Positions 899 to 29,117 of a DNA stretch of 64,000 bases are shown here, one piece after another. The number at the start of each line of letters is the position of its first letter. Positions within the stretch are counted from its first letter, which is position 1. A program made the translations under genes and the position numbers. The DNA comes from Podarcis liolepis (taxonomy: Eukaryota). The notes beneath the pieces were generated by a model. That model worked only from the letters and a program-made list of their open reading frames with translations. It searched no databases and was not told where the DNA came from. The DNA lies in the NCBI GenBank assembly GCA_965112155.1, contig OZ218101.1. One strand, 5' to 3'.

Positions 899-1301
899 GC
901 TGGACCATAAAGAAGGCTGATCGCTGAGAATTGATGCTTTTGAATTATGGCGCTGGAGGAGACTCTTGAGAGTTCCATGGACTGCAAGAAGATCAAACCT
1001 ATCCTTGAAGGAAATCAGCCCTGAGTACTCACGGGAAGAACAGATCCTGAAGCTGAGGCTCCAATACTTTGGCCACCTCATGAGAAGAGAAGACTCCCTG
1101 GAAAAGACCCTGATGTTGGGAAAGATAGAGGGCACAAGGAGAAGGGGACGACAGAGGACGAGATGGTTGGACAGTGTTCTCGAAGCGACCAGCATGAGTT
1201 TGACCAAACTGCGGGAGGCAGTGGAAGACAGGAGTGCCTGGCGTGCTCTGGTCCATGGGGTCATGAAGAGTCAGACACAACTAAATGACGAAACAACAAC
1301 A

Positions 1302-1302
<1 letters not shown>
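899..1302 (+). mobile_element. BovB (RTE) LINE, 5'-truncated 3' end
   Basis: ORF 966-1403 reads RVPWTARRSN...LRLQYFGHLMRREDSLEKTLMLGKIEG...RSAWRALVHGV, the BovB RT C-terminus, followed by a (CAA)n tail. Confidence 0.92.

Positions 1303-1376
<74 letters not shown>
1303..1376. repeat. Compound (TG)n(AG)n microsatellite
   Basis: Directly visible next to the BovB tail. Confidence 0.95.
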
Positions 1377-1378
<2 letters not shown>

Positions 1379-1761
1379 TGACTCTTGGTTTTTGCATGAC
1401 TGAATGTAGTTTGCTGTACAAAGCTTCTAGCGCCCACTCAAGAGGAAAATAAAGGGACTGTGGCTGGGAGTTTCCATTAAGCAGGATGGTGGAAGAGAAC
1501 CAAGCTAGGGTTGCCATACATCCTCTTTCCCCCGGACAGTTCCTCTATTTTTTTTAGGGGCGGGGGTGAAATTTCACTCCAGGCAGATTTTTTGAATTTG
1601 CAAAAAATGTCCAGATGTTTACAAATAGAACCAGGAAGTGTGCAAGTATCACTCTTTCCTATCTCTATGGAAAGACTTTGTCTGTAGAAAGACTTGCATT
1701 GCAAGCAGAGCCAGGAAGTGTGCATGTGAGAATCACTCTTAACCTTTTCCTGTCTCTATGG

Positions 1762-1897
1762 CAGGCTTCCTCAACCTCGGCCCTCCAAATGTTTTTGGCC
1801 TACAACTCCCATGATCCCTAGCTAGCAGGACCAGTGGTCAGGGATGATGGGAATTGTAGTCTCAAAACATCTGGAGGGCTGAGGTTGAAGAAGCCTG
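1762..1897. mobile_element. hAT-type MITE with 8-bp TSD
   Basis: TIRs CAGGCTTCCTCAACCTC...GAGGTTGAAGAAGCCTG. Perfect TSD CTCTATGG at 1754-1761 and 1898-1905. Confidence 0.9.
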
Positions 1898-2574
1898 CTC
1901 TATGGTGTACCCGCATGGTGGATAATGAGGTTGGGCAGATTGATGGGTACTACCTAGAACTCTCCAAGTGGTTGCCCATGCTGGTGCCCAGTAAGCTGCC
2001 CGTGAGCAGGCAGGAAAGACACCCTGAAAGGGTCTCAGCTGGCACCTCCCTTAGCGGGCCTCCCCCCCCCCCCCCCCCGCTTAAGGGTCTCCCATATACT
2101 CTGCGTGCCTCAATGCCAGGATTCCCACCGCACCCTAGTGCATTATCCATTGACTGCAATTAAGCTGACTCTACTTAGCAATATTGGAAAGATCTAAGAA
2201 AAGAAGAAGAGAGCTTGCTAGTAAAGAGGGTCTCCCCAAGCTCTCTCAGCCCTAATTAAAAGTTCTTTGTCGAAGGCCAGTGGGCATTTGGAGAGCTAGC
2301 ATGGAGATTAACCAAATCACCTTGGCTACCTCTAAACACAATTCTCGAATGTAAGTTAAAATACACAGCTCTTATGTAAGGTCAGGGAAAGCCCCCCTCC
2401 CCATTTTTTGTGTGGGGGTGTGTGTGTCCTGAAATCTGAAGCACCTAGCAAAGAAAGTGCTGGGGGTTGGGGGGGAAGAGTGGGGGAAATGACTGAAGCA
2501 CCTGACACCCCATTTCCTCCCTAAAAGCTTTGCCCTTTCCTTTGATCACCATACTGCTTGGATCTTCACATTGT

Positions 2575-2727
2575 ATCTCTTTTTGCCATTATGCCTTTAG
2601 AAGACATCTGAAAGCAGCCCTGGATAGGGAAGTTTTTAAAATGTTTAATGTTTTATTATGTTTTTATTTATGTCTTTAATTATGCTGGGGTAACCCAGTC
2701 AGATGGGCAGGGTACAAATAATAAAAT
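2575..2727 (+). mobile_element. L2-like LINE 3' end
   Basis: Encodes FRRHLKAALDREVF, a typical L2 ORF2 terminus, then the ...CCCAGTCAGATGGGCAGGGTACAAATAATAAA tail. Related tails at ~5292-5430 (-), ~27670-27790 (-) and ~42425-42515 (+). Confidence 0.6.
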
Positions 2728-3825
2728 GATTAGGATGACGATGATGGAATAGGATGTCTCTATTTCTATTGGAGAAATGTTGGAGGGTATGGTGTGTGTG
2801 GCCACAGTGCACTCATGCCATGGAAGGGAGGGGTCTCTGTGTCCTCTTTTTTGCTCTTCAAAATATGGCAACCCTACAAGACCATCCCTTGGTTCAGCAA
2901 CATTGTGCATAGTGTTGGTTTGTTTCCAAATCAGGACATTTTCTAAGTCTGCTGGGTTATCTTGTATTTGAGGAGTTAATATAACCAAGCACATTCTGAA
3001 ATGCATCTGTTTCTTGATAGGTTTGGCATCTTGGGATATTTAATACCAAAATAGATGAGAAGTTAATTTTCAGAAGTGCAGAGCTAGAAAAACAAGGTCT
3101 GTCCAAATTCTCTGTATTAATAATTAAACCAGGGATGTATATGTGAAGTGCTTTTTAAGTAATGAACATTAGTCATAAATATTTAACAGTTGTGCTTATG
3201 AAAAATGCCCTAAATTATAGTGAAATGTTAACAAGGATGCCTTGTACTTGACAGAACAATGCAGTCCATGAATATTTCAAAGGAGTCTGTCTGACAGGTG
3301 GAAGTGAATGAGACACATGCTACTCTCTTCCTCTCTATTAGGCTAACACCACAACCCTCGGCTCCAAACCTTTGTTCATTTACACCGAAAGGCAGGCAAG
3401 CCTTTTCAGGCATAATCTAAAAACAACATCTTCCCCATCACTAGCATTATAGTGAACAGATTGACTATGTAGAGAAATCGTTTGAAAGGATATTGGCTGA
3501 ACTCACGGTCAATAACATTATCAAAGTAGTAAATAACACAGGAGGAGAGGCTTAATTTGGAAAGATATTCATGAGTGTAGGATTGAAGAAGATGTCCAGA
3601 CTGTGCTGGCAATCAATAAGTCAAGCTTAGACAGTGAGCGACTTAGCGCTGTGCCAAAACCTGTCCTCCAAATCCCCAGAAGTTTTCTCTCTCTGAAAAA
3701 GGTGCTTCCACTTTTCTGCCTCATTCTCAAGGTATTTTAGAACTTTATAATTTTCATGGGTGTGGGGTGGAGAGAAGTTTTACCTTAAAAAACAAACCAT
3801 GCTAACTTTTTAAAAAATAAAATGA

Positions 3826-3840
3826 CTTTCTTTCTTTTTT

Positions 3841-3895
<55 letters not shown>
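3826..3895. repeat. (TTTC)n microsatellite
   Basis: Directly visible. Confidence 0.95.
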
Positions 3896-3896
<1 letters not shown>

Positions 3897-5150
3897 AAGA
3901 AACAGCAAGTGTCAGGTGTACAGTAGGTAACTTTCCAGCCTTCTCGTGCTTTGAGAAATGGCCAGCTGAAGATTTCACATGGTTTCCAGAAAGCATGTGC
4001 ACACCACAAAATTTGTAGACTAAAGGAAACTAACATTTTTAGCCACCTCAAAAGTAAGGGAACTGCTGCAGCAGCAGCAGCAGCAGCAACAACAAGAACA
4101 ACACCCCAGCCATTAAAATTTAATTGACATTTTTTCTCCGACTTTGGTAACTTTTGGAGGTAAGTTCTTTTCTCATTGTCTGAGAATGGTCAGAACAAGA
4201 GGGAACATTATAATGGACCAGCAACGCTAATCTAGCTTTATCAACTTCATGTTTCTCTTCACAGCATAAAGAGCTGTTGAGCAACTAAGAGCTCATGAGT
4301 TGTGTACTATTTAGAAGTCCTGGTATAAGTGGTAGACAGAAGTCATTCATGAGAAAGGAAGGAAAGGTGTGTGTGTTTCCGTACACCCCCTGTATGGAGG
4401 AGACTGCGACCCACATCCAGTGGAGCTGTGAGCTCGCGTTAGCAGAGTTCCACAAGCAGTGAGGTTGTGTAGGTATGTGGCATCATAATTTTTCTTTATT
4501 TACAGCAAATCAAAACAACAAACATGGCTAGTGCGAACAGGGTCTCAAACATGTGTCTTCTCTGAGAGCAGAGAACAAAGAGCAGAAAACAAAAGCACAA
4601 AGAACAGAAGTTCTGTATCTGTATTTCCATTCCCACACTTCCAGCAGTGTGGAATGTAAATAAGGATCCCATGATCCAAGCAATGGGAGAATGAAATCAT
4701 AACAGTGTGTGCATGTATCACAAGAGGCGCTCCTTACCCATAAATTTAAATAGACTGGAGCACTATGCAAGTATTAATGCTCTTGCATTAATCAACACAG
4801 GAGCAAAGAGGACATCACAGACCTCCTTCTAGGCTCCCTCCTGATGCTTGCATGCACACCACAAAGGTCTTTAGGGAGGGACCCTTCACAAATATACTTG
4901 CAAAGGGTTCCACAGGATTTGGAACAGGGTTCAAAAGCCTGTGAAAGGCTTCACACGGATAACTGTGTATACAAAGCTCGCCCCCCGGCAGACATTTGTG
5001 CTGTACACAAATGCAGAGGAGCAGCATTTGATGCTCAGGTAGGTCTACTCAGAATAAGCTGAGTCAATCCTTTGGCCTATTAATCTTTCTAGCTGGAAGA
5101 TGGCATACCCTCCAACATTTCTCCAATGAAAATAGGGACGTCTTATTCAA

Positions 5151-5213
<63 letters not shown>

Positions 5214-5222
5214 AATAAAAAG

Positions 5223-5291
5223 AGAGATGAGCACTGCAACCCCAGAGTCGGCCACGACTGGACCTAATGGTCAGGGGTCCCTTTACCTTTA
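5223..5291 (+). mobile_element. Sauria SINE 3' fragment
   Basis: GAGATGAGCACTGCAACCCCAGAGTCG...GGGGTCCCTTTACCTTTA, the same tail as the copy at 36928-37251. Preceded by (AAT)n. Confidence 0.75.
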
Positions 5292-5436
5292 TTTGTACCC
5301 CATCCATCTGACTGGGTTACTGGGTTATATGTTGGGTGGCTTCCAACATTTATAAAAATATAATAAAACATTAAACATTAAAAAAAACTTCCATATACAG
5401 GACTGTCTTCAGATGACTTGGGGAGTCAGATACCTC

Positions 5437-5574
5437 CATACCCTCCAACATTTCTCCGATAAATATAGGGAAGTCCTCAGGAAAAGCAGGACATTCCGGG
5501 ATCAAATCAGAAATCGGGATGGGTTCTTTAAATCCAGGACTGTCCCTGGAAAATAGGGACACTTGGAGGGTCTG
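5437..5574. mobile_element. MITE with CATACCCTCCAA...TTGGAGGGT(A/C)TG TIRs (probably hAT)
   Basis: Inverted termini visible. Related ends at ~2771-2791, ~5104-5145 and 52761-52956. Confidence 0.65.
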
Positions 5575-7114
5575 AGATGGTTCAACAATTCATTTGGATT
5601 ATGGATACTGGGGCCTGCACTGGATAAATAAGGTTGCCAGTAATGATTTTGTCCTTTATGTTTCAGAACCCTGGACTGAATTTTGTAAAGCAAAGTTGAT
5701 GGGTGACATTTTATAAGTCATTACCAACTTGTTCGAGATGGCCTAATATTGCAAGCTACTAGATGGACTTTTACCTGAAGATGGTAATTATTTATCTCCT
5801 TTTCTCATCAATCCTCTCTCCCCCACCCCTAATTATTCCTGGAAACATATCAGCTTTCTGCTGGTTGATAGCCATATTGAATCAGAACAGTTTTATTCCA
5901 AATTATGATGTATTCCATATATATGTAATCACAAATGTTATAACTTTATGTAGCTGTTAGCTCTCTGCAGCAGACTTTTGTTTTATATATTTAGTGTGTT
6001 GTCATTGAAAGCACATTGTGTATAGTTTAGTTTGCATTGCATGCATAATTAAAAAGCTAGATAATTCAGTGCCGCAAGCAAATTGGTGACTTGTGTAACA
6101 AAATAATCAGACAAAATGTACTACTAGTAGTAGTTTCTCCCAATTTCTGTTACATTTCTAGAATGCATTAAACAAGCCACATTAAACAATGCCTGGTGTG
6201 CAGCAGTTCCAGGAACAAAACAGTATTTCATGGTAACATAGAAGCAATCATGATTATGATTCTGGCTTCTGTTTCCTAAATCATTGCACTACCTCAGGCT
6301 TATTCTTCTAGAACTTGTCAATTCAATTTTTATTTCCTGATTAAACTCTTCTTTTTTTCTGGCAACTTCTTTTTGTTTGAGATGTTTTGCGGGTATCTTT
6401 TTACAGCAAAGAAAGCTCCCACCACCGCTAACTGTTTGTCAAGATCATGGCCTGGAAGGGAAGAGTTAAGCCTTTCCTCCATGTGTGCTGCAGACCCACT
6501 AGAAATCACCCCGCCCCCACCCACATTTGCAATTACAATTTTTAAAATTAAAAAATCTGTAGCAAGTTCTTCCTCCTGCGAAATTACTGCTGTTTTCACG
6601 AGGATTTAATACACAAAAAAGGCTTTGGACCTGAAGTGAAGCAGTTGTATTATTGATGGCTCTGACAAGGTGCCCGTGGGGCCTATTTTTAATGTGTGAA
6701 AATTGACAAAACCTTCACCCCCAACCTCTTTCCTATAAACTAGAACAAGCCCTACTCCATCCCCAAATTTCTCCCACCCAGCTCCAAAACAACAAATCCC
6801 CAAATTCCATGCTGTATTTGGATGTTGTTTAGTTTCTTTTTCTTCTTTTCCATTTTTTTTACATTCCTAAGGTTTTATAAGCTTCATTGCCCTTAAGCAA
6901 CTTGCATTTCTTTTTAAGGAAATGTATTACACTACCATAGGAATATTGAATAGTTAATATGTGATTCTGTGATTCTATGTATTCCATTATTTAATGCTAT
7001 TATTAATAAAAATTAATATGTTTATTATCGTTCAGAGACTGTAAGCAATAAAAACAAAACAAAAATTCTTTCTAGCATATGGTTACCAGATTTTTTCAAT
7101 GAATCCATGGACAC

Positions 7115-7159
<45 letters not shown>

Positions 7160-9439
7160 GCTGAGTAGCAACAGGGAGTCAGTAATGGGGATGGTGAAGC
7201 CGAAGCACACATGCATATTGTATAAAGGTGCAAAGCCCTTCTTTTGCTCCCTGTGAAACATAAACATGCAGAGTTTTAAAAAACTGGGCAACGGCCTCCC
7301 GAGCCTCCCCCGATCACTCAAAACAAAGGGGGGAGGGGGCAGGAGATCTGTACTGCCAGATGTCCCCGTTTCCCCTTTGGCAGTGGCAGTCAGCAGCCCG
7401 TAGCCAGCCTGGTAGCACATTTGGCTCTGGCTGGCTTCAGGAGCTGCTCACTGCCGTGGCACCTGCCTTTTTTCCACGCCAGAAGTCCCCATATGATGTG
7501 TCTTCTGTGCAACTGCACTAACAGTCTGGCTCCGGGTTGATGAGGCTGCTGCTGCCACATTTCCCGGGGACAGATTTGCAAATCTGGGGACATTCCGGGG
7601 ACAGAATTTGTCAGGGGACAGATTTGCAAATCCGGGGGCTGTCCCTGGGAACGTCTGGTAACCCTATTCTAGCATCCCTTGTAATCAGTCAGTCATTTCG
7701 TTCAATCACCTTCTATGTTATGGAGTCAAAACTGCACCACACACACACGAGAGAGAGAAGTATCAGGAAATTTGCAGTAACCTTGAACTTTGCAGAAGTG
7801 CAAAAAACATTTTTTTTAAAAAAATTCTTTTGCTGAAAAACTACCTTGTGCTATCTCTTATGCTGGATAGGTCATTTCCTGGTTTGCAAGAAAAGTTATT
7901 TTAAAAATGCACTTTATAGAGCTGTTTTCTGAAGTGCCTCTGCCCCTTTTATTAAAGTGCTCCGCAGCTGCATTGAGCAGAGGGGAGGCAGCACATCCTA
8001 TAATGGTTTGCCACTATATTATATAACGTATTGGGAAACTGCCTGAAGAGCTATGAGCATATGAAATATTAGTCATGGTCTTGGGGCAGCCTGCCTGATA
8101 ATAGAAAACAAAATGGTTCAAAAGTCCTTCTTTGCTGTGCTCTTCTCTGTAACAAACTTTTCCATTAGGTTTTGTGAGAAGTGATGCAATTTTTGGAAGC
8201 ATTAAGGCACCCCCCCTCACTGTTTTAAGTGCCCAGAGGCTGCAGCAGTGTGAATTTTAGTTCTTTAAAAGGAACTATGAAATGGAAACAAAGCTAGCCC
8301 TGTGATTAAAGAGAATACGTTACAAAGGCAGGTGAGAGACACCACTTGGAACAGTTGAGATAAAAGATGCATGTAGAGGTTTCTAATAGAAACATAGGAA
8401 AGCATAGGGGGGATCAGAAATGTCAGCATGGGTTACATTTTGGCATAGTAGGAGACATTGAACATGGATTTATATGATAGAAGTTAAAAGGGGGAGAACC
8501 GCCATGGACATATGAAAGTCTTTTCTCATATAGAGAGCAATGAATTATTTAAGTGGCCCTGTTTTGTGCAGAATGAAGCCTATGGTCAATTTGTTTTGTT
8601 AGAAAATCAAGTGCAATGTTTTCACAGGAACCCTTTTTTAAACAGAATTTATTGTACCAGGATGGCTGGTATTTAACTCAGTTGACCCATAAATCCTCAA
8701 TAACATATTGCTCACCTACAAGAAAGAGCACTGTTTCTGGATATTGTCAATCTCATTGTATTCCACTCAACTTCCCTGAGAAAAGTATCTCGTCTTCTGG
8801 AACCTATTGTGAATTCCATTGAAATTCCACATCCCACCTGAGGAGAAATACACAAATTTGATTTGAATTTCACTTTAGGTGAAATTGCTGTGGCACCTCT
8901 AATATTGGTGTGGAATTACCACTTAATTTAGCCAAAGGTAAAATCTCAATGTGAATTTTGAGGTGGCTGGAGTAAAATACCCAAGGAATTCAACAGGTTG
9001 CAGAAAGTATTTCAATACAACTTCTCAGAAATATACAAGGCAGGAATATTTTTTCTGCCTGTTTCAATAACAATTGTCTGATGTGTCCTGACATGAAGAA
9101 GCAGCTCACAAGCAAGGTCCATTGGGGCTATTCTGCCTCTGTTTCCACTGCCTTCCATTCTTATGTGCAAAAACCTAGTTTACAGTAGCCAGGGCATCAT
9201 GAATTGGGGTGCTGAATGACAGAATTACTGAATGACAGAAGAGACATAATAAAATATGCAAAGCATTAAAATTACAGATTGTAGAATTTGGCTTTGCTTT
9301 GGCACACTGTTAGGAAGTTTAACTTAAAATTACGGTAAGTGAAATATGCTTCCCTTCAACTTCCTCCCATTGGTTTTACTCTTGCCCTGTGGAGCAATGG
9401 AGAACATGTCTCATTCATCCCTATAGATGTTTACTGTGC

Positions 9440-9846: not shown

Positions 9847-10207
9847 CTCTCATGTGAATGTGTGTGGACTTAAAGGGAGCGGGGGAAGCAGTGAGTGCAA
9901 ACCCTGTCTCCAGCGTCCCAGTGCGCAGGGTCTCCATGGCAGAAGAGAGTTTCTAAGCATGTTTGGGTGAGCATGCTTAGGAGCCTAGGAGCATACTTCT
10001 AAGCACATTGAATTAGAAGTGGATCTGCACACAGGCAAATTTCTAGGACGCAGCTTGAACGTGCACACCTGTTCCAGTTTAAACTCACACGTGTTCAATT
10101 TAATGCACAAATAGGGCTTATTATTTCATATGATCTGGACACTCTGCTTCTGCTTATAGATATATCTCAAATATGGGAAGGGTTGGTTGTGTGTGTGTCC
10201 TTCCTCT

Positions 10208-10590
10208 TGTGGGAAGTTGTCCGTGGATAGAAACTGACAAAGGACTTCAATATAAGGGTAACCCTTTTATTAGCGCGTTTGCAAAAGCGGACCCTCCGTA
10301 CCCGTGGATACGAAGAGCCCCGATCTGGTTTCAGCACCGTAGTTTTATCCCTTACTGCCGCCCCTCTTTTGGAGGCTTGGCTTACAATCTACCTATCAGA
10401 GTTTAACACATTTCTAATACATTGTTCAATCTACTCTATTCATATTTACTCCCTTCTCAGTGTGGGCACCACCCTTTGGCTCTCCCTTTCTGGCGTACGC
10501 GACTGTGTTATCTTGTATACATGTCTAGCTCTCAAGGCTGAGTTTGAGGCACGTCCTTTCTGTATGCTTTCATTGTTTCCCAATCTCACA
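10208..10590 (-). repeat. 3' LTR of the provirus
   Basis: Identical to 16119-16501 except T10278 versus C16189. On the minus strand: TATA-like GATAAAA at 10349-10343 and AATAAA at 10271-10266. Confidence 0.97.
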
Positions 10591-10606
10591 ATCCCCCCTC
10601 TCTTTT
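10591..10606 (-). promoter_or_regulatory. Polypurine tract
   Basis: Minus-strand AAAAGAGAGGGGGGAT immediately upstream of the 3' LTR. Confidence 0.92.
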
Positions 10607-10622
10607 GTACCTTGCCTCAAAC

Positions 10623-11597
10623 TCACATAATAACTCCCATATTCGTTCCTCCACATACAAAACAATTTTTCACAGTTAGCTCTTTGGCGATAGTCTCAGC
10701 TAGACTCAAAAACATGTTATGAGCTCTTGGGGGAAGAGGTAATTTATTTAATTGTTGTATTTCTTCTTCAAAGCTCTCAAATACTGAGATTGGCTGTTTG
10801 CTGACCTTAGTAGTATGTACTTTTATGATTAGGTGCCCATAAGGATCCTTCCCATTTCCATCTATCCCCAAACCAAGGTGAATATATTTAGGTCTAGTGG
10901 AAGGGAGTTCCTTAGCCCACAGACATACAGGATTGCATTGTCCTGACCCACAGGCCGTCGAAGCCGCTCCCCTGGTGATATTTATCCCCTTCGGACCCCT
11001 ATATAGGGGTATCTCTTCCACCCCATTTGTATACCAATGGTTCGTCACCCTTGTGGCCCCTATATTGGAACCGGCAGCCTGCTGGAACAGGTACTTATTC
11101 TCTTGGAGATAAGCTCTCTCCCAGCTTAATGACCCACAGGTGACTCCAGCTTGGTCGTTAGGCCCCTGTCCCTTGGTGATAGCAATGCACGCATCAAAAC
11201 AAACATGTATCTTCTCTGTGCCCCTGGTGGAGTTGTGAGCTATATATCCCCGCCTATTTTGTGCTAGGGAAAACATATGTGCCCTTTCACTTGCCTTATT
11301 TGCCGTTCCCCCTTTATTTCCATATACATATATGCTGGAGGTGATAGGTCCCACTGCTAGGGGCTCATAACATTCCGTCTTATTCTCTTTGGTCTTACAT
11401 CTAAGATATTGAGTCTGATTGTGGACACAGGGGTCTAATTCTACTGCACACTCGGGGGCAACATTATAATGCATTAAAGTTCGTGTAATTACTGTCCCAG
11501 TTTTAGTAACTCGGATACATTGGCTGCAGCTCTCATCTTGAATTTCGGTGGCCAGGATACTCCCTAGCATAATCAGGAGGCTGAACCCTGCTATCAT
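10623..11597 (-). CDS. env: Truncated envelope: signal peptide plus SU only (324 aa), ERV3/ENR1-like
   Basis: ATG at 11597 gives MIAGFSLLIMLGSILA (signal peptide). Segments CSQC..TRTLMHY..EC..CVHNQTQY and VFESF..LPPRAHNMFLSLAETIAKEL..CFVCGGTNMG closely parallel human ERV3-1 Env as I recall it. Stop follows the CXXC motif; no furin site, fusion peptide, ISD or TM. Confidence 0.9.
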   Translation of the reverse strand: MIAGFSLLIMLGSILATEIQDESCSQCIRVTKTGTVITRTLMHYNVAPECAVELDPCVHNQTQYLRCKTKENKTECYEPLAVGPITSSIYVYGNKGGTANKASERAHMFSLAQNRRGYIAHNSTRGTEKIHVCFDACIAITKGQGPNDQAGVTCGSLSWERAYLQENKYLFQQAAGSNIGATRVTNHWYTNGVEEIPLYRGPKGINITRGAASTACGSGQCNPVCLWAKELPSTRPKYIHLGLGIDGNGKDPYGHLIIKVHTTKVSKQPISVFESFEEEIQQLNKLPLPPRAHNMFLSLAETIAKELTVKNCFVCGGTNMGVIM

Positions 11598-11818
11598 TGC
11601 CTCCGTCTTAATTGGTTTACTGCTTGCACTACCGTGGGAGTCCAGCTCAGACTGCAATTGACCTCTCCCTCAAGGGTGATGGCACAATATTGTATAATTA
11701 TGTCTTCTATAAAAATTATGTCACACAACTCAGTGCAATGCACACATAACACACAACATTCGCAATGAGCGCAGCAACAGCATTCATAAAAACATTTGCA
11801 AGTACAGAATAGACACAT
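11594..11818 (-). CDS. Candidate Cys-rich retroviral accessory protein (74 aa) between pol and env
   Basis: ATG 5 nt after the pol stop; TGA overlaps the env ATG (ATGA). Fills the whole pol-env gap. 16 Cys, 14 of them in the first 32 aa. Confidence 0.6.
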   Translation of the reverse strand: MCLFCTCKCFYECCCCAHCECCVLCVHCTELCDIIFIEDIIIQYCAITLEGEVNCSLSWTPTVVQAVNQLRRRQ

Positions 11819-11823
11819 CGAGG

Positions 11824-14277
11824 TCAGCGTTTGGATTCTTTCTGGTTCCTGGTTTCCTGATTGGTAAGCGTCACCTTCAGCGGATTATCGGGGTCAACAG
11901 TTACCCTCCAGTCCTGCGGGGCTTTCTTGACCCTGTGATAGTGAGTCCACCCGTGCTCCCTGGTCCTTACTGCAGACTCGGTGGTCAGCAATACCTGGAA
12001 CGGACCTTCCCAAGCAGGGTGCAATTTCTCCGCTTTCCACGCTTTTATCAGGACCCGGTCACCGGGCTGGAATGTATGCTGATGTTCTAGGAGAGGAGGA
12101 TGCTGGACCAAAACACCACGTCTATGGAGAGATAACAAAGACTGGGAGAGTGACTGTAAATATTTTCTTAGGAACAGATCCCTAAATTCTACGAGAGGCT
12201 GTCCCAGCTGGGCCAGGTAGGGTCTCCCTGTCATCAATTCAAAAGGAGAAACTCCCAGGTCCTTTCTCGGCGCCACCCGCATTCTTAATAAAGCCAGTGG
12301 AAGGTTCTTTGTCCAGGGCAACCCATTCTCCAGATATAGTTTAGTCAAGTGCTTTTTAATCTCTGCGTTCGCCCTCTCTACCTTGCCACTACTTTCAGGG
12401 TGCCACGGTGTGTGCAGGTCCCACTTAATTCCCAAGGCTGCCATCACTTCCTGTAAAATCCTTTGAGTGAAGTGGGTGCCTCTATCCGAGTCGATGGCCT
12501 CAATTACACCGTACCGGGGGACTATATGTTCTAAGATGGCTTTAGTCACCACTTGTGCCGTTGCCTTCCTGCTAGGGAAGGCTTCCACCCACCCTGTAAG
12601 ATGATCTTTAAATACCAGCAAATATTTCTGCCCCCCTCTCTCTGGTAGTTCTGTGAAGTCCACCTGTATCCTCTGGAACGGCCAGACTGCGAGGGGTCTT
12701 CCCCCTTTTTCAGTTTTCTTTGCTCTCGTCTTATTTACTTTCTGACAAATTAAACATTTCCAAGCTATCGAATGAGCCATGGGCCACATGTCCTTGCTCC
12801 AATACAGGGGTTTTACCATATTAATCATCGCCTCCGTCCCGAAGTGCCCACTTTCATGTACCTTTTCTAGGATCCCCATCATCGTAGCTTTAGGTATTGC
12901 CATTTGCCCGGTTGGGGTCTCCCAATCACCATTCCTATGTTCCCATCCCTCCTTTCTCATGTAGTCTAATTCTTGAGAGGTAAAAACCAGGTCTCCTGTG
13001 TCTTCTTTAATCAGGACCGGTACCTTCAAACTATATTGCTGGGTTAGTGTGGCGCTAGGGGTATCCCTGGCGGCTTCTTTCGCCCTCAAATCAGCCCACC
13101 TATTTCCCACTTCCGCGGGGCTCATTCCCCTGGTGTGAGCCGGGACGTGGACTACTGCCACCTTTTCTGGTTCCGTGAGGGCGTCTAGTAATCTTTCTAG
13201 TAATGCCATGTGCTCGATTTGTTTTCCATCCGCCTTAATGTACCCTCTGTCTCTCCAAGTTCTACCAAAGGTATGTACCACCCCCCATGCGTAGCGAGAG
13301 TCTGTCCATATAGTCACCTCTAGGCCTCTAGCTAACTCAAGGGCTCGTGTCAGAGCCATGATTTCACATTTCTGAGCCGACCAAGTCGCCGGCAAAGCTC
13401 CACTCTCAAGCACCTCCCCGTCCTCCTTAACTACAGCGTATCCTGACTTTCTTTTCCCCTCTTCAACATAACTAGAACCATCAGTGTACCACCTTTTCCC
13501 CCCCACCAGGGGCATTTCTGACAGATCCTCCCGGACCTTGGACATTAATTGTATAGTACCCATACAGTCATGTTCATCTGGCTCCCACTCTTTTCTCTCT
13601 CCGATCAGAAACTCAGCTGGGTTTAAATTTCGGTCAGTCCCCAAGGTGATGTTGGGGCTTGTTCGTAATATGGTTTCATATTTCACCAAACGACCATCCG
13701 TCATCCATGTGGAGGCCGCCCCAGTCATTATGGTGGATATCTGGTGGGGGCTATGAACTATCAGCGCTCCTCCAAAAGTTAATTTTCTACTCTCAACCAC
13801 CAGTTCAGCTGCAGCTGCCACTGCCTGGATACAAGTGGGCCAGGCTCGTACCACCGGTTCCAAGGTTTTACTGAGGTAGGCAACCGGCTGATATCGCCCC
13901 CCTCTCTTTTGGGCTAAAACCCCCACAGCCGTCTGGGAACTGATCGTCACATATAAGTGGAACGGTTGCTGGAGATTGGGCAATGCCAAAACCGGGGCCC
14001 CGATCAGTGTTCTTTTTATCTCCTCCCATTTTAATTTGTCCTCCTGTTTCCACGTTACCTTTTCGTCCCCAACAAGTTTTTGATTCAAGAACTGAACCAA
14101 TTTTGCGCATTGATCTATCCACAGCCTACAATACCCCAGCAACCCTAACATCCTTCTTACGTCTGTTTTATTCTTAGGGGGTTGCAATTCCAAAATTCCC
14201 TTCACTCTCTTTGTGCCCCCCAATGCATAGCTGTATAAAAGAACTGTGCTTGCATGTGACAAATTGCCAAGCCACAT
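11824..14277 (-). CDS. pol: N-terminally truncated Pol (RT thumb/connection, RNase H, integrase), 817-aa open frame
   Basis: LGLLGYCRLWI (thumb); WYTDGSS/AQKCE/WTDSRYA/HVPAH/GNRWAD (RNase H); HESGH..CLIC (HHCC); QVDFT/DSDRG/KVERAN (DDE); WEGPF. No YxDD palm. The first ~20 aa are non-viral. Confidence 0.93.
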   Translation of the reverse strand: MWLGNLSHASTVLLYSYALGGTKRVKGILELQPPKNKTDVRRMLGLLGYCRLWIDQCAKLVQFLNQKLVGDEKVTWKQEDKLKWEEIKRTLIGAPVLALPNLQQPFHLYVTISSQTAVGVLAQKRGGRYQPVAYLSKTLEPVVRAWPTCIQAVAAAAELVVESRKLTFGGALIVHSPHQISTIMTGAASTWMTDGRLVKYETILRTSPNITLGTDRNLNPAEFLIGERKEWEPDEHDCMGTIQLMSKVREDLSEMPLVGGKRWYTDGSSYVEEGKRKSGYAVVKEDGEVLESGALPATWSAQKCEIMALTRALELARGLEVTIWTDSRYAWGVVHTFGRTWRDRGYIKADGKQIEHMALLERLLDALTEPEKVAVVHVPAHTRGMSPAEVGNRWADLRAKEAARDTPSATLTQQYSLKVPVLIKEDTGDLVFTSQELDYMRKEGWEHRNGDWETPTGQMAIPKATMMGILEKVHESGHFGTEAMINMVKPLYWSKDMWPMAHSIAWKCLICQKVNKTRAKKTEKGGRPLAVWPFQRIQVDFTELPERGGQKYLLVFKDHLTGWVEAFPSRKATAQVVTKAILEHIVPRYGVIEAIDSDRGTHFTQRILQEVMAALGIKWDLHTPWHPESSGKVERANAEIKKHLTKLYLENGLPWTKNLPLALLRMRVAPRKDLGVSPFELMTGRPYLAQLGQPLVEFRDLFLRKYLQSLSQSLLSLHRRGVLVQHPPLLEHQHTFQPGDRVLIKAWKAEKLHPAWEGPFQVLLTTESAVRTREHGWTHYHRVKKAPQDWRVTVDPDNPLKVTLTNQETRNQKESKR

Positions 14278-15390
14278 GAAAAATTAATTTCTCATGGATC
14301 TTTGGCTGCATCTGTTGACCTTTGGTGACTAATGTACCACTTTGGGATTTAGCGCAACATTCCAAGTCCCTGTGCAGTTTTAAAGCTCCAGTTCATATAA
14401 AGACAAAAGGTTTGAAGACTGCCTCCTCTTTCTTTTCTGGAAGTAAATATTCGACTCACATAATAAATATTTGTAGTAGATAAATCATCTGCCTTTTTAA
14501 TCAATAAATTGATTTGCGGATCACTAAACCCTCAATATTTGCACCTCTGAGGAAATAGTAATGAAGCAAGGGATAATTTATAATGTTAAAAACAAAAGCC
14601 TCCACTTTTCTAAAACAAAAATAACATATAGAATAATACAGAATCAATGTAGTGATTAAACAGACTGTGCTATGCAAACCTAGGTGGAAAGAAAGTGCAT
14701 CCTAACATATCCAAATTATTGGATCCTCCCTCAGTTATAGAACATATATTCTCTGTTGTCTGAGAATGAATAATATTAGAACTAACAAAAACAAATTCTA
14801 TGTTTCAGCATTCATAGTTGCTTTTATCACCAGGTGGTGATCTCAAACACTTCATTTTGCAAATGAAGTCTATTGAAATCAAATTTCTGTTTTCTTCAAC
14901 TATGCCTGTTCCAGGCTATGGCAGTATTTATATACAGTGGTACCTTGGGTTACATACGCTTCAGGTTAAGAACAGACCTCTGGAACGAATTAAGTTCCTA
15001 ACCCGAGGTGCCACTGTACTAGTTTTAGACAGCCAGCATGATGCAGTGACTCTAGAGGTGGCTATAGACTGCAACTGACCAGACTCAGGTTCAAATCTCA
15101 CTTGGTGACCTTGAGCAATCCATTCTCTCTTAGGCAGAAATCCTATGCAGAAGAACCCAGCATAAGTTAAGCCTGTGTTAAATAAACTGGCTCCAAATTC
15201 CATTCAGCAGTGGAGCTACCACGGGCTGAGCTGTTCTAAGCCAGGCAGAGGAAAAAAAGAGTATCTAAAATAGAGTTAGAATTACGTCATCCAGTTTGAG
15301 TTACACCACCTGTATTTCTGCCACCTTCATTTATGTCGAGTTTTGAGGTCATGTGACTGAGCTGATCAAGCTCAGGATCCAGCCTTAGTC
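14222..15390. other. Non-retroviral (host-derived) insert replacing most of gag, pro and the RT core
   Basis: AT-rich with no retroviral motifs. Contains a mariner/pogo-type MITE, a SINE-like remnant (~15080-15130) and a segment matching host sequence at 30506-30549. Junctions are approximate. Confidence 0.85.
14935..15016. mobile_element. Short Tc1/mariner-pogo-type MITE inside the proviral insert
   Basis: TA|CAGTGGTACC...GGTGCCACTG|TA. Same family as 58565-58791 and ~60780-60884. Confidence 0.85.
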
Positions 15391-15613
15391 TCCCCCTCAG
15401 GGTTCCAATTATACATTCCATCCGGCCCTATAGGGGGTATTTTGGCCAAACCACCCTACAGAAATTAATCATAGTCACTTTTGACAAGCCTATTGTATAT
15501 TGTCTCGGATAGTCCTCATCCCATTGCATCAGTATTTGTCCTAATGGACTATTAGGATCAATAGGACCCTTCCCATTTGAATCCTTCTGTCGTTTACTCT
15601 GACCCTTACCCAT
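15390..15613 (-). pseudogene. gag: gag 5' remnant (matrix N-terminus), frameshifted and truncated
   Basis: MGKGQSK (myristoylation) ..SPLGQILMQW..FCRVVWPKYP. After a frameshift in a C run it continues IGPDGMYNWNPEG, resembling the gamma-like matrix WPxEG motif, then host sequence. Confidence 0.85.
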
Positions 15614-15885
15614 GGTTTACAATGTCTCCAATTTCACTCACTCACACAATCACACGGAATCGCCTGGCCGCTTCCCTCGCGGGAGAGACGGAACCGCAAG
15701 CTAATCCTCCCGTCAGGGCCGAAACCCTGATCCACACTCACGCGTCCATATGGAGCCTCTCTTTCATCCAAGAGACGAGTCTCTCACCCCCGTCCCACAG
15801 CACAGTTTACAAAGTTCTCATGTCTACTCACCCAATACAGTCCAGCGTCGCTTCTCGCAACTAGTGAACAGGCGGGCGTCCCCGC

Positions 15886-15939
15886 TGGGTGCTCGCGGTC
15901 CCGGACCGCCAATGGGTGCTCGCGGTCCCGGACCGCCAA
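15886..15939 (-). repeat. Exact 27-bp tandem duplication in the proviral leader; each unit holds a GC hairpin
   Basis: TGGGTGCTCGCGGTCCCGGACCGCCAA x2, containing a GCGGTC/GACCGC inverted repeat. Confidence 0.9.
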
Positions 15940-16094
15940 AAATGAGACCTAGTTCTCTCTCTCTATCCCCCTATATCAAGTCCTGTCTTTTAGCCCTCGT
16001 GAACCGTCACGGGTGGACTCCGGCTCGGGTCACTCCGAAAAGACGGAGGGGCGCCTACCCGGATTCCGGGATCCCCCCGAGCAGCCCGTCGAGA

Positions 16095-16113
16095 GCCCCA
16101 CGTTGGGGCGCCA
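16095..16113 (-). promoter_or_regulatory. Primer-binding site, tRNA-Lys(CUU)/Lys1,2 type with one extra C
   Basis: Minus-strand TGGCGCCCCAACGTGGGGC, 5 nt after the 5' LTR. The canonical Lys1,2 PBS is TGGCGCCCAACGTGGGGC. Confidence 0.88.
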
Positions 16114-16118
16114 AAAGT

Positions 16119-16501
16119 TGTGGGAAGTTGTCCGTGGATAGAAACTGACAAAGGACTTCAATATAAGGGTAACCCTTTTATTAGCGCGCTTGCAAAAGCG
16201 GACCCTCCGTACCCGTGGATACGAAGAGCCCCGATCTGGTTTCAGCACCGTAGTTTTATCCCTTACTGCCGCCCCTCTTTTGGAGGCTTGGCTTACAATC
16301 TACCTATCAGAGTTTAACACATTTCTAATACATTGTTCAATCTACTCTATTCATATTTACTCCCTTCTCAGTGTGGGCACCACCCTTTGGCTCTCCCTTT
16401 CTGGCGTACGCGACTGTGTTATCTTGTATACATGTCTAGCTCTCAAGGCTGAGTTTGAGGCACGTCCTTTCTGTATGCTTTCATTGTTTCCCAATCTCAC
16501 A
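16119..16501 (-). repeat. 5' LTR of the provirus (promoter)
   Basis: 383 bp, TG...CA, one mismatch to the 3' LTR, followed by the PBS. TATA-like GATAAAA at 16260-16254. Confidence 0.97.
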
Positions 16502-19500
16502 CTCTTCACGTAACTGTATTTCGAAGTAGCAAATGTCAACACAAACACACACAAACCAATTCTCAGGCTTCCTGCTTGGGTTTCCATTGGGGCTTATATT
16601 TGCTTTAGTATAAATTGATGCTTCAGCTAATCTCTCTGTGTCTTAGGCTCCCCTTTCCCATCTCTGTATCTCAGAGACAGTTCAATACCTGCTGCTTTGC
16701 CAGTCAACAAGTGCTTCTTACTACCATGCACCATCGACTGCTATAGCCTTTGATACGGTTTCCTTCTACAGCAGAGCACATAATTGAAACCAGTTCCCTT
16801 GAAATCTGCTTAGATTTTCGGCAGGCCTGAGAAGAGAGCAGATTTGTAGCTGAATGCTTTCCAAGCAATCTGTTTAGTTCTGCATGTGCTTCAACTCAAT
16901 TTCATGGCAATTTCATAAGGAGGTTGTATTTTAATCCAGTCTGCTGCAGAGCTCGAAGCTGTTCCCCCTTTTCTTTGACTAATAGTTTGAGCATTTTTAT
17001 GCCACATTGGTTAGCAATATGAATTATTGTTCCAGCACATTTTCAATTTGTCTCTAGTTTAAATTATCCTCCAATAGCTCCCCAATTATTTTTTCCCATT
17101 CTAAGTATACAAGTCAGTTTTGTATATAGCTTTCTGCATTTCATTGATGTGTTTTGTTTTTCTATCTTGTCGGCTTTTATTGCCAAGAGCTAATATATCA
17201 AATGCATTCACTTAGTGAAATGAAAGATACTTAAACATACTAGTAGCAGAGCAATCTTTGGCTCTGAGCCACTCAGGTAAGGAAAATATTTCTTGATGAA
17301 AACCAAATGTTGCTAGATATAAGCAGGAGGCCTCAGAAGCACTAGGGCATTCTAATGCAGGCTGCAGCCCTACAAACGCTTATCTGGGAATAAGCTCTGT
17401 TCCAAGTAGGCAGGCATTGGATTACAATGACAGTATCTCTCTCTTAGATTTTTATTTGTGGCTGGCAATAAATAGACAGACACCAGATGGGCATCAGCCA
17501 TATAGTTGTTTTACAGGCAGGTTCTATATCAACAGGCCATGTGGAAAAGCAGGGGGAGATGTTCTTCCCTGAACTTGGCCATGCTGCTTTCTGCTCCCTG
17601 TATGATCTGCTCAAGCCTCAGCATTCGTTCCTGGTGAGAGTATATGACAGTCTGCTTTGGTGCAAGTAAGGTTTCCATTTTCAGCAGTTGCCCTAAAGCT
17701 GTTGTGAGGTCTTCCCAGTGTCCCAGGCATCCGATTACAGGCATAACTAGCGTCACCTCCTGTGTGCCTCTGTCTCCCCTGATTTGTATGCGCTTCTTCC
17801 AAAGTCATGATGGTATTGAATAACATATATGTATATACACCTACACTAGGTGCTTTCTCAAGGCAAAATAAAAAAATGTGCCTGTCTTTGGCCAATCTGG
17901 ACGGCATGTTCTGGCCCCCAACTGGTTAACAGGCAAATGTCTGGGGTAATTCTGAGGCCTGGGTTGACCAGGTGGGTCATCCAGCTCATCAGGCATGACT
18001 GAGCCTGAGCAAGGCCTTCTATAGGCCTCACCAAATCAACCTGCCTGAGTTTAGCGAGACTCCAAAATCCCAGATCTTGTGGGATTTTGCCCTTTTGATT
18101 CTTGCATTGACCAGAAGCTCTCAAACCATCAGAAGATGAACCTCACCCAAGCTGCAAGCCTGCTGGGTGCAGAATGCCACCACACAATGCAGCAATCAGC
18201 TGTGCCCCTTTCTTCTGCCCTACCAACCCATCCCCTCCCCACAGATTAGTTCACAATGTGTGAGAGAGCCCTCCAGTGACTCTTTATCAACTCTGTATCC
18301 TAAACAGCAAAAATTGTAATTAATCTATGATTGGGAACCAGACATTTATAACAATGGGGTTATTACCATAAGTACCCAAGAAAGAACAGAAAACATTGTC
18401 CCATTAGGGAGTTTTTGGAATGAAAATAGAATATTCTGCACAATCTCTATATGACAATTTTAAGACCCATTTATTTAAGTTGAAGAGTTAAGTGCATGCT
18501 TAGATATCTCCCACCAAAATTAAGAATTTGCAGCTGAACCAATGCATATTTACTCAGAAGAAAGTTCCACTTGAGTTCATTGGGCTTACACCTAAGTATG
18601 CATAGTCCTTGAAATGCTTAATTTTTGCAGGATAATGCTACGCTTTATTAGTAGTATCTATATATAATAATTTCATTTACTACCATTCAACAATATTTGG
18701 TCAGAGTTCCTTTTTAAAAAATAGACTAACCTAATAATCATTTAAAAACATTTTTAAAAGGGAAAAAAAGGAAGAGGGGTAAAAGATTAACTAAGAGAGC
18801 AATCCTAACTTGACAGGGTTTGGATTGCGTCTGAAGCCCTGCTGTTCACGCCAACCAGCACTAAAGGAGGGGAGGCAATATTGCCCCTTCCTTTTTTTGC
18901 AGGTCTAGCTCTAGGCTTATCAAAGCCTAGATTGGGTACATTGCTGGTAACTGGTTTGGCTTAGGATCCAGTGGATTCATGGCTGGCCCAGCTCCACCCC
19001 TTCCCTGCCCCTCTCCACCCCAGAAATATCCTGTTCAGAGGGTTTCTGCTGATTACTGCTGGTGAAAGTACCACTTACAGATACAGTGGAGCTTTCCCTC
19101 TCCATGGTGCAGCAAAGCAGAGTTGAGGGGCATTTCTGTCACATCCAAGCTCCTTCCAGCATGGCATCTCTGAGCTCCTTGGCAAAATGGTAGGTTGCAA
19201 GCGTGATAAAAATAGCAAGCACATACATTATTAGATAGGATGCTAAATAAATTACTGCATGTAAAACCTAGACAAGACAGAATATAATCTTGATTCAAGA
19301 AGATTTATTAAAGCTTTCTATAGACATGTTACCAGTATCCATGGGTGATCCTTAGGTTGCATTCTTATTCTAACCAGGGAGAAAGACACAGTGAACTTGG
19401 GCTCGAGGTGGTGAACCTTAGTTCTGAGTTGGCATGTATACAATTGTTCTGTGAAAACTGGTCTTAGTCTCATTTGTGAAATCACCCTCAGTTATAAATA

Positions 19501-19652
19501 GGTTCCAACCTGGCATCGTCTGTCTCAAGAGACAATAGAGTGTGCCTCCACTTGCAGCACTGAAGTGACCTCCCTGTCGCGCAAGTCTTGGCAGTATGTA
19601 TGAAGGTCCTGGGCTGCTCAGATGCCTCACTGATGAGAAGAGCAGGGCAACT

Positions 19653-20502
19653 CATTTGGCACCAGCTGGGCTGCAGGAGTTGCTGGAAGGAGGCATACAA
19701 AGTGCCATTACGGACTCCACTCACTAGCATCCTCTCTACACTGGGACTTCAATGGAAGTGTGAAAAGTATTCTTTAGGCAATCTATGAAACTTGTACATA
19801 TGTTATACAGTTCCTGTTGTTGGCAAGCCCAGACAAGACTCCCCCCCCCTTTGGCCTTGCTGATTTGGTCAAAAGGAAAGCAGAGCAATGTTTGGCACCA
19901 CCTTGGCTACAGGAGTTGCCAGAAGGAGGCATACAAGGCACCATCCCACTGTCTTAGGACTCCACTCTGGATTTGTGTAGTTTACTCCTTTGCCTTTTCC
20001 TCTCCCAAAGATATCCCACAAGGTACTGGAGGTTTAGGATGAGAGTTTTCCTTCTCCTAGATGGGCCACCTTCTCAGGCTGACAAGCCCCATCTGCCCCT
20101 CACTTCCCTCTACAGCATGTGCAGAAACCGCCTTCTTGACTCTTGGACCCACTTATTGGTCTCATCTGCTCAATCTGCTGGAGCCTGTATTTGCATGCAG
20201 GGAAATTCCATAACTCACCAAGGGTTTGAGACTCATTGGCTACCCTCACCTGGTTTAGCTGGCCAGTCATGCTGTTTCCCAGGGTGTGTCACATGCTGAG
20301 AGCTTCTAGGAGCCACAGGTGAGAGCCATGAGACTGCCAAGTTGGATTTGAAAGTGTGGAAGCAATGCCTTCTGTAATTTCAGGAGCTACAGCAATGACA
20401 GAATACAATTCCTGGGGACTGGCTTCATTTTGAATCATTTATTTAGGTCACAAAGCACAACTTTTATATAAAACCACCCTATTATCCTTTGAGAAAGGGT
20501 GG
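19653..20502 (+). repeat. Arm A of an inverted duplication (retroelement-derived pieces, possibly RTE-like 5' region, plus flank)
   Basis: Colinear with the reverse complement of 29118-30043. ORF 19973(+) and ORF 29310(-) translate nearly identically. Confidence 0.85.
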
Positions 20503-20503
20503 C

Positions 20504-20557
<54 letters not shown>
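20504..20557. repeat. (TAAA)n microsatellite
   Basis: Directly visible. Confidence 0.95.
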
Positions 20558-27910: not shown

Positions 27911-29117
27911 CAGGTATAAAAACAATTGATTAAAATACAACTTAAAAACAAGATTAAAATACAACATTAAAATGCAGCCTCATTTTAGTAGAAACTCAAA
28001 TCAAAAACTTTTTGAGGATGAAAACGTCAAATCTTCACCAAGGCCAACTATCCAGATTGGTCCCACGTGGGCCAGAAAAAAGCCAGGGAAGTCCCCAAAT
28101 AGGAGCTCCATCACAGAAGGAGAAAGGGAAGTTCAACTAGACATTACAGAGGGAGAAGGGAAACTTGAAAGAGAGCTGCCATTTCCAGCAGCCACCTGGC
28201 ATTTTTTTGCAATGTGGAATTTCAGCCTCATGGGAAGCTGGTTTTAGCAGGGAGAAGGAGAAGAGACTGCCCGGTTGATATTTCTTTAGGGGTACAGTCA
28301 CATTCTGATGTCAATAAATCCTATCCAAGTATAGGTAAGCAATACCAATGATTAGATACAATGATTAAAATAATAAATATTGCAACTGAGATTCTGATAA
28401 ACTCAGAGTTGAATGTGAACAGTCTTGTGGAGAATTATGGCTTGGCCTATAAATAAAAGCAGCTTCCTTGTCACAGTTGATTTGTTTTTGGAAACACTCC
28501 TTTAGCACCGTGGTGCACTATATAAATCTTGTATATGTTAGCATAACTGTCGCCTAGAAATTGAATTATTCTCTGAGGAAATGCTGGTCTGTCTAGGTCA
28601 TTGTAAAAGTGGATTAGCTGAACAGTTCTGGGAATTCCATATTTTCTTCAGACTCTGGGCGCTTATCTTTGGATTAGCAGCTGGTCCTAGCAGCATTAAT
28701 CCCTTGTTACTTAAATTACGAATTCTTTAGCAAACAATGTAAAAAAAGAAATATTCAGAGAATATAATAGTAAAAAATCCATTTTTGGAAAGAAGTAATT
28801 TAAAGTTTTACACTAAGGACTCATTACACTGCATATTTTTGGAGAGAAGACTCAAATGGGAGCAGTTTGGATTAACTCTTTGAGATAACTTTAAATTCAT
28901 AATCTGCCATTTATGACAACCATAATTTATACCTTCTTTTTCAGAATCAGGCCAATGCATTTGAGGTTCAAAAACTGGAACTTACAACAACGAGATAGAT
29001 TTCCTATAAAGAACTGGACACAAATGTGGACATGCTATTCTGTATTCTTTTTACTAAATAAAGATGGATGTATGCATGCATGCATGCATGTATGTATGTA
29101 TGTATGTATTTTTTATA

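Follow-up and report, generated by a model that had tools for sequence, protein, structure and literature searches.

A PCDH9 intron segment in place of gag-pro-RT in a young endogenous retrovirus of Podarcis liolepis

A 64,000-nucleotide (nt) stretch of Podarcis liolepis DNA (contig OZ218101.1, assembly GCA_965112155.1; hereafter the window) contains a minus-strand provirus at positions 10208-16501 (6,294 bp), in which host DNA takes the place of much of gag and pol. The provirus is flanked by a 4-bp target duplication and has a polypurine tract, and its two long terminal repeats (LTRs), 383 bp each, differ at a single site (382/383 identical), as near-identical LTRs in the original prediction for this stretch had implied. 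Compared with a long copy of the same family, nt 1085-3794 (2,710 nt) are gone, a loss that covers the greater part of gag, the protease and the entire RVT_1 domain of the reverse transcriptase (RT), and 1,179 nt of host sequence plus shared junction bases stand in their stead. The insert has a low GC content (0.38, compared to 0.50 in pol and 0.54 in gag and leader), and the sole other full-length match to it in the genome is non-viral and lies on the strand and chromosome of the provirus, 1.34 Mb away, at G000:C4:6687075-6688435; the remaining listed genome matches cover a miniature inverted-repeat transposable element (MITE) alone. The predicted presence of host DNA in place of gag-pro-RT is thereby borne out, and the search of the genome that had been proposed as a check yielded a source locus outside any endogenous retrovirus (ERV).

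Insert and donor differ by 15 substitutions, three small indels and one 160-nt deletion in the MITE, which falls between two copies of a 6-nt repeat, giving ~98.7% identity overall. Apart from the 86-nt MITE and short old repeats, the insert consists of single-copy intron sequence, and an origin from another retroelement was not found. The MITE with mismatched terminal inverted repeats (TIRs) recognised in the prediction is present and TA-flanked, and the repeat remnant reported beside it corresponds to old remnants at two places (Table 1). The ends of the insert do not lie at 14222 and 15396; they fall within 14205-14208 and 15388-15395. At the RT side, pol was said to resume at KRVKGILEL, of which the K is host-derived, with pol homology restarting at 14208. 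At the gag side, the supposed end in WNPEG does not share a reading frame with the gag start codon (ATG, 15613); the stub is frameshifted and meets its first stop after 61 codons. The reported 37/44 match to window positions 30506-30549 is exact, but this locus was rejected as donor, since it is only a paralogous old repeat (84% over 50 nt, compared to 98% over the whole insert at C4:6.687 Mb). A junction microhomology does exist; the GGGGA at the 30506 copy belongs to the wrong locus, and the true donor gives 8 and 4 nt. Among 200,000 pairs of random switch points, at least 8 nt was reached in 0.0002 of draws and a sum of at least 12 nt in ~1e-5, though both homologies were measured against the long copies and not the true parent, so that 8 and 4 nt are approximate.

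The donor lies within a 505-kb intron of PCDH9, in sense orientation and thus in that of the virus, because PCDH9 exons flank it on both sides on the viral strand. A minus-strand protocadherin exon 88 kb away (C4:6776731-6779775), found in the exon-scored segment set (150 of 249), is that of PCDH9, with 98% identity to the named protein, and the next exons are located at C4:6271393-6271596 and 6022825-6023220. The window provirus itself lies ~675 kb beyond the last PCDH9 coding exon. No provirus-family sequence was present in 250 kb around the donor, and the 140 longest of 378 open reading frame (ORF) segments in 50 kb at the donor gave no credible Pfam match. The insert wholly contains no ORF longer than 86 aa, and an expressed coding capture was not found. 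As the cargo is collinear intron sequence with no exon, it does not correspond to a spliced mRNA that had lost its introns. It probably serves as neutral filler without any coding function. A different LTR retrotransposon (L070:6397-8849, minus strand), with zinc knuckle, RT and integrase matches, resides in sense orientation in the PCDH9 intron ~55 kb downstream of the donor.

Table 1. Positions of the features of the provirus (window coordinates) and of the second captured segment (coordinates of its own locus).
Feature	Position	Strand	Remark
Target-site duplication, upstream copy, 4 bp	16502..16505	.	matches 10204-10207
5' LTR, 383 bp, TG...CA	16119..16501	-	382/383 vs 3' LTR; 381/383 vs LTRs of two long copies
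Primer-binding site, tRNA-Lys(CTT) type	16095..16113	-	1 base longer than in most sister copies
Leader and gag start (ATG 15613)	15576..16094	-	near-identical to long copies; 2 mismatches vs C18 copy, gaps apart
Gag stub, apparently of a divergent viral lineage	15396..15575	-	78/93 and 61/76 identity vs long copies; frameshifted
5' junction, 8-nt microhomology of donor intron and viral gag	15388..15395	-	chance of at least 8 nt, 0.0002
Captured host DNA, sense piece of the long PCDH9 intron	14205..15395	-	donor G000:C4:6687075-6688435
Old repeat remnants in insert	15140-15217 and 15346-15395		
MITE, TA-flanked, imperfect TIRs	14933..15018	.	86 nt here, donor 160 nt longer; very high copy number
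4-nt deletion removing the only sense AATAAA of the PCDH9 donor	14641..14643	-	
3' junction, 4-nt microhomology of donor intron and viral RT	14205..14208	-	measured vs long copies
RT connection stub, apparently of a divergent viral lineage	13795..14204	-	no closer than 85% among 14 other matches in the assembly
RNase H and integrase region	11987..13794	-	5 mismatches/1,808 nt vs C18 long copy
Pol end and truncated env	10623..11986	-	near-identical to short sister copies; their 1.1-kb env deletion in common, junction near 10634-10639
Polypurine tract	10591..10606	-	sequence
3' LTR, 383 bp	10208..10590	-	pairs with 5' LTR
Target-site duplication, downstream copy, 4 bp	10204..10207	.	matches 16502-16505
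TMCO1 cargo	L039:4551-5521	-	likewise in nine other short copies

Judging from its sequence, the provirus is a class I, gamma-like ERV, because of its Pfam domains, the one-frame layout of gag and pol in the family and the murine leukaemia virus (MLV)-type relatives of the RT. The pol region at 11987..13794 matches RNase_H, rve, Integrase_H2C2 and MLVIN_C, the MLV-type integrase C-terminus, and a long sister copy matches Gag p30, protease, RVT_1 and the TLV_coat env. The long copy at locus L038 has gag and pol in one frame split by a single stop (adjacent frames 6741-8540 and 3219-6740), and the closest solved relatives of the long-copy RT are MLV-type p80 RT/RNase H chains (E 1e-149). The primer-binding site pattern of the sister copies falls in a tRNA-Lys(ctt) gene called by ARAGORN at 1 of 6 loci scanned.

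The assembly holds 37 LTR matches, which resolve into 15 two-LTR elements (the window provirus included), a further two-LTR element that is only distantly related, four solo LTRs and a partial match. All 15 two-LTR elements have 4-bp target duplications, and in 14 of them the LTR pair differs at 0 or 1 site. Besides the window provirus these are four long copies (8,948-9,950 bp) and ten short ones (5,694-5,987 bp), and all ten short copies have the 1.1-kb env deletion in common with the window provirus. The PCDH9 cargo is carried by the window provirus only (1/15). The distant relative (L051:460-6740), with identical 414-bp LTRs, has a plain deletion from late gag to RT and no cargo, and the gag-pro-RT slot is therefore simply dispensable. 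In the copy at C14:26.30 Mb (L036), a ~1-kb env insertion with inverted ends (~nt 6813-7821), unrelated to the provirus family, resembles a DNA transposon that entered a very young provirus.

The backbone of the window provirus is a mosaic. Its LTR, leader and first gag codons match those of the long copies (2 mismatches, gaps apart), whereas the gag stub (15575-15402) is ~80% and the RT stub (14203-13795) 85% like the long copies, and nothing closer than 85% to the RT stub was found among 14 other matches in the assembly. Beyond the RT stub, a stretch of 1,808 nt shows 5 mismatches against a long copy, and short-copy-like sequence comes next. The viral stubs beside the cargo are thus 80-85% like the assembly copies, compared to 99-100% outside them. 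On the most economical reading, a divergent lineage captured the cargo and the cassette later recombined into other backbones, which would have taken one or more additional rounds of reverse transcription ahead of the integration in the window. Since the cargo sits between divergent stubs inside a mosaic provirus, its capture likely preceded integration at this site. The same conclusion had been drawn earlier from the decayed repeats within the insert, an argument that falls because the donor holds the same repeats and they cannot serve as a clock. The distance between cargo and donor was likewise rejected as a clock, as donor flanks differ by ~1-3% between animals.

Sequencing runs of other animals contain the junctions as well. 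At least half of the query words were present in 15 of 24 listed runs, and four runs (X1, X7, X8 and X11; four organism labels and four study codes) were mapped to the provirus. An X1 contig crosses the RT junction (13888-14248) with 1 difference in 361 nt, RT stub included, and the gag junction is bridged by X1 and X11 contigs (among 32 pieces listed); the contigs bridging junctions carry 1 substitution each. The ends of X7 and X8 contigs coincide exactly with 14205 and 15395, which is expected where donor and provirus paths branch, and an X7 contig reaching just 30 letters into the cargo was left out of the count. Contigs of other runs break at the MITE, and their cover of the flanks of the insertion site is patchy. 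In X1 there is little or no cover over most of 12288-13764, which is long-copy pol in the window provirus, yet both junctions are held, the hole alone proving nothing. A count of ERV copies with the same junctions, which had been proposed as a check, therefore gives one in the assembly, alongside the junction-bridging contigs of other runs. In the leader, a 27-nt tandem duplication (window 15886-15940) lacks one copy in an X11 contig.

At the donor, to which two DNA runs (X1 and X11) were mapped, the depth rises over the cargo interval. In X1, the cargo-interval contigs have depths of 56 and 48, compared to 10.8-13.6 in four flank contigs, and in X11 of 487 and 477, compared to 84-102 in five flank contigs, which corresponds to cargo/flank ratios of 3.8-4.4 and 5.1-5.2, respectively. 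Among the sites listed, these contigs agree with the window letter at 11 in X1 and at 10 in X11. Because cargo depth is 4-5 times flank depth in both DNA runs, the PCDH9 cargo is likely multicopy in other animals, with several extra copies per genome. The suggestion that the ERV may be spreading its cargo is thus not seen in the assembly, but is supported by this contig depth.

A second cargo occupies the same slot elsewhere in the family. All ten short copies hold, between gag start and RT, a non-viral segment of 770-970 nt that is distinct from the PCDH9 cargo and has a sole non-viral donor at C6:99115563-99116530 (L058:4563-5530). This donor lies in sense orientation in the last intron of TMCO1, whose flanking exons match residues 108-158 and 157-188 of PDB 6w6l chain 6. 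As the copies have ten differences from the donor in common, the TMCO1 cargo goes back to one capture event, which is independent of the PCDH9 capture. Target duplications differ between the 10 loci. Further copying of the chimera is therefore directly evident for the TMCO1 cargo, whereas for the PCDH9 cargo it is read from the mosaic backbone and the depth only. No family provirus was found in 50 kb around the TMCO1 donor, and none of the ten carrying copies lies on C6, where the donor is located.

The TMCO1 cargo is circularly permuted: it starts at ~99115769-81, runs to 99116530, returns to 99115563 and ends at ~99115783, entering and exiting within the same 15-nt purine tract. Such a permutation would arise if RT, with its RNase H, made one turn of an RNA. 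The enzyme would enter the intron fragment, jump from the 5' end to the 3' end or round a circle, and end at an RNase H cut. The pattern would likewise be compatible with a tandem allele or with a circle of DNA that had been opened at a single site. A back-splice or lariat origin was rejected, the junction having neither an AG/GT pair nor a 5' GT. A G-rich resemblance between the two cargos close to their 3' ends was discarded too, as 763 of 1000 resampled sequences and 87 of 107 host windows did at least as well as the best local score.

The short copies have further peculiarities. Nine of them carry an additional insert of ~800 nt within integrase (L042:2396-3191, minus strand) from another multicopy LTR element, with 83-92% matches at 31 or more other loci among the matches listed and 520-bp LTRs in L061; its start reads like a capsid fragment, and its end is a pyrimidine tract plus AG. 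The short provirus at C8:85.2 Mb (L045, C8:84.7-85.45 Mb) lies inside a clustered-protocadherin array and shows an RT patch of long-copy type as well as additional deletions.

The reading we favour, at a probability of roughly 0.7, is a double template switch by RT onto PCDH9 intron RNA, followed by helper-driven spread. PCDH9 intron RNA (nascent, excised, or from LTR read-through) would have entered a particle of the divergent viral lineage. During minus-strand synthesis, the 4-nt homology would be the point at which RT departed from pol; ~1.2-1.36 kb of intron would then have been copied before RT rejoined gag at the 8-nt homology. The product would keep LTRs, primer-binding site, leader and polypurine tract, making packaging in trans possible, and would have recombined at least three more times (long-copy leader, long-copy pol and short-copy env) before integrating at the window site, the defective cargo genome being copied onward by a helper virus. 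This reading is supported by the fact that both cargos are sense-strand intron pieces in the same slot. Template switching at short homologies, as originally invoked, thus gains support from the microhomologies and the sense-intron donor; RNA was likely the template of the PCDH9 capture, a point reached indirectly.

Several observations weigh against it. No intron has been spliced out of the cargo, so it bears no direct hallmark of RNA, and the chance of two sense orientations in two is 0.25. Two RNA runs, of which 12% and 6% of reads were read, gave a mean depth of at most 0.15 on non-repeat donor and cargo bins, so that transcription of neither was observed. No RNA run figured among those listed with the junction stretch, a blank that carries no evidential weight. 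The junction microhomologies fit RT switching and DNA repair alike. The assembly holds one PCDH9 cargo copy only, and contig depth is not a copy count; viral DNA that is unintegrated or somatic could add to it. The 1.3% distance between cargo and donor cannot date the capture, given the differences between animals in the donor flanks. Finally, the donor is just 1.34 Mb away, which has a chance of ~0.2% for one random copy (a post hoc figure), and this nearness is left unexplained.

That nearness is what the main rival, a founder event at the DNA level, would account for, in which a break or stalled fork in a provirus was repaired by copying the nearby PCDH9 intron before helper-driven spread; DNA-repair copying is expected to use nearby donors. 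We regard this as unlikely, although donor and provirus share chromosome and strand at a distance with a chance of only ~0.2%, the microhomology is compatible, no spliced junction is present, no reads fell on the unique bins of the donor, which is sense to PCDH9, in the two partly read RNA runs, and the permuted TMCO1 piece would fit a small DNA circle opened at one site. Both donors are, however, sense introns, and the TMCO1 donor lies on a chromosome without any of its ten copies. In a variant of this explanation the window locus itself is the founder, later partly overwritten by related viral cDNA. This would need in-place replacement of the LTRs, the leader and 1.8 kb of pol by long-copy sequence, and of env by short-copy sequence, in a provirus whose LTRs differ at 1/383 sites and match long-copy LTRs at 381/383.

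A one-off repair after integration at the window site, with a cargo that never moved, would agree with the single copy in the assembly and the nearby donor. It is very improbable and already largely refuted by other runs, one of them from a differently labelled organism, in which contigs bridge the junctions and depth steps up 4-5x where the cargo begins and ends, and by the retention of both junctions in X1 despite scant cover over most of 12288-13764, with the reservation already made about that hole. Misassembly or a chimeric contig, for which nothing speaks beyond the repeat-rich setting, is practically negligible, as independent contigs span both junctions with 1 substitution each and the insert differs from the donor by 15 substitutions and four indels, many of them common to other runs.

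Both donors contain exactly one AATAAA in sense orientation. As had been noted, the insert has three AATAAA on the plus strand (14462, 14503 and 15181) and none in the viral sense, but as a sign of selection this strand asymmetry was rejected as not above chance, since the hexamer is likewise lacking from 83 of 175 sense windows of equal size around the donor; the provirus backbone itself has three internal sense AATAAA. The sole sense hexamer of the PCDH9 donor is lost by a 4-nt deletion in the window copy and in a high-depth X11 contig, a deletion that is absent from the X1 contig, and among the ten TMCO1 copies, 3 and 6 have lost the hexamer of their own donor through two distinct deletions. 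The repeated loss is suggestive, though post hoc, and the TMCO1 deletions lie in a slippage-prone purine stretch. A more far-reaching version of the intron-RNA reading, in which such RNA, and not mRNA, is repeatedly taken up into the slot (a PCDH9 piece in one case, and in the other exactly one turn of a TMCO1 intron fragment that stopped once RNase H had destroyed the point of entry), while the non-coding cargo genomes so formed continue to spread by means of helper virus across several related host taxa and lose the hexamer under selection three times independently, can be entertained tentatively but is more doubtful than not.

Retroviral transduction of cellular genes is exemplified by the acutely transforming viruses, and Swain and Coffin reportedly put forward a read-through model for it in 1992. 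The present case shares with oncogene transduction a defective genome, host sequence in place of viral genes, a presumed need for a helper and short junction homologies, but has no coding cargo and no gag fusion protein, and no family provirus lies within 250 kb (PCDH9) or 50 kb (TMCO1) of a donor in the assembly, although an unfixed or somatic insertion is possible there. Mouse ETn/MusD and VL30 are likewise non-autonomous LTR elements with non-coding interiors that are mobilised in trans. The origin of their filler is unclear, whereas the filler here is traced to a named intron at ~98.7% identity.

On the sequence evidence, the window case would best be described as a variant of LTR-mediated retroposition with a non-coding intron as cargo. 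That process was reported in Drosophila, where exon-exon junctions were used for detection and the model uses mRNA (Tan et al. 2016, PMC5131818). In both systems, host sequence replaces part of the internal ORFs while both LTRs are kept, switch points have short similarities (8 and 4 nt here, compared to a median of 6 bp in Drosophila), dispersed copies share differences from the parent, and the chimera passes through further rounds as a non-autonomous element (PMC5131818). The differences are that both cargos here are intronic and non-coding, lacking the mRNA feature, that the carrier is an env-bearing gamma-like retrovirus and that one cargo is circularly permuted. A further parallel are the recKoRV recombinants of the koala retrovirus (KoRV) with PhER, in which a very young gamma-type ERV has its middle replaced, with microhomologies at some breakpoints, and the recombinant reintegrates with target duplications and varies between populations (PMC6112702). 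The insert in recKoRV is another retroelement (PMC6112702), whereas the slot here holds single-copy host intron; the truly recKoRV-like case is the second insert in the nine short copies, which comes from another multicopy LTR element. No literature on intron capture by a squamate ERV or on permuted capture was found; the search did not extend to subscription papers, and the supplementary tables of PMC5131818 could bear on this.

Capture of host RNA by retroviruses is known mostly from oncogenes and from exon-junction screens, and intron cargo is invisible to the latter. The family described here offers two independent captures whose donors are named at 98-99% identity, whose junctions are exact and whose surrounding proviruses are nearly identical, so that RNA versus DNA as template, and read-through versus co-packaging, become testable in population data. 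It also demonstrates how non-coding intron sequence gets copied to about ten new loci, and the one-turn permutation of the TMCO1 cargo may preserve a trace of RT having copied an intron RNA that was circular or joined at its ends.

Elsewhere in the window, two long inverted repeat arms (19641-20552 and 29068-30056; 81-97% complementary and ~9-10 kb apart) may represent either the two termini of a large DNA transposon or copies of a repeat in inverted orientation. An 83-bp near-perfect hairpin at 46287-46464 (96%, 12-nt loop), which is present near the PCDH9 donor too, is likely a MITE.

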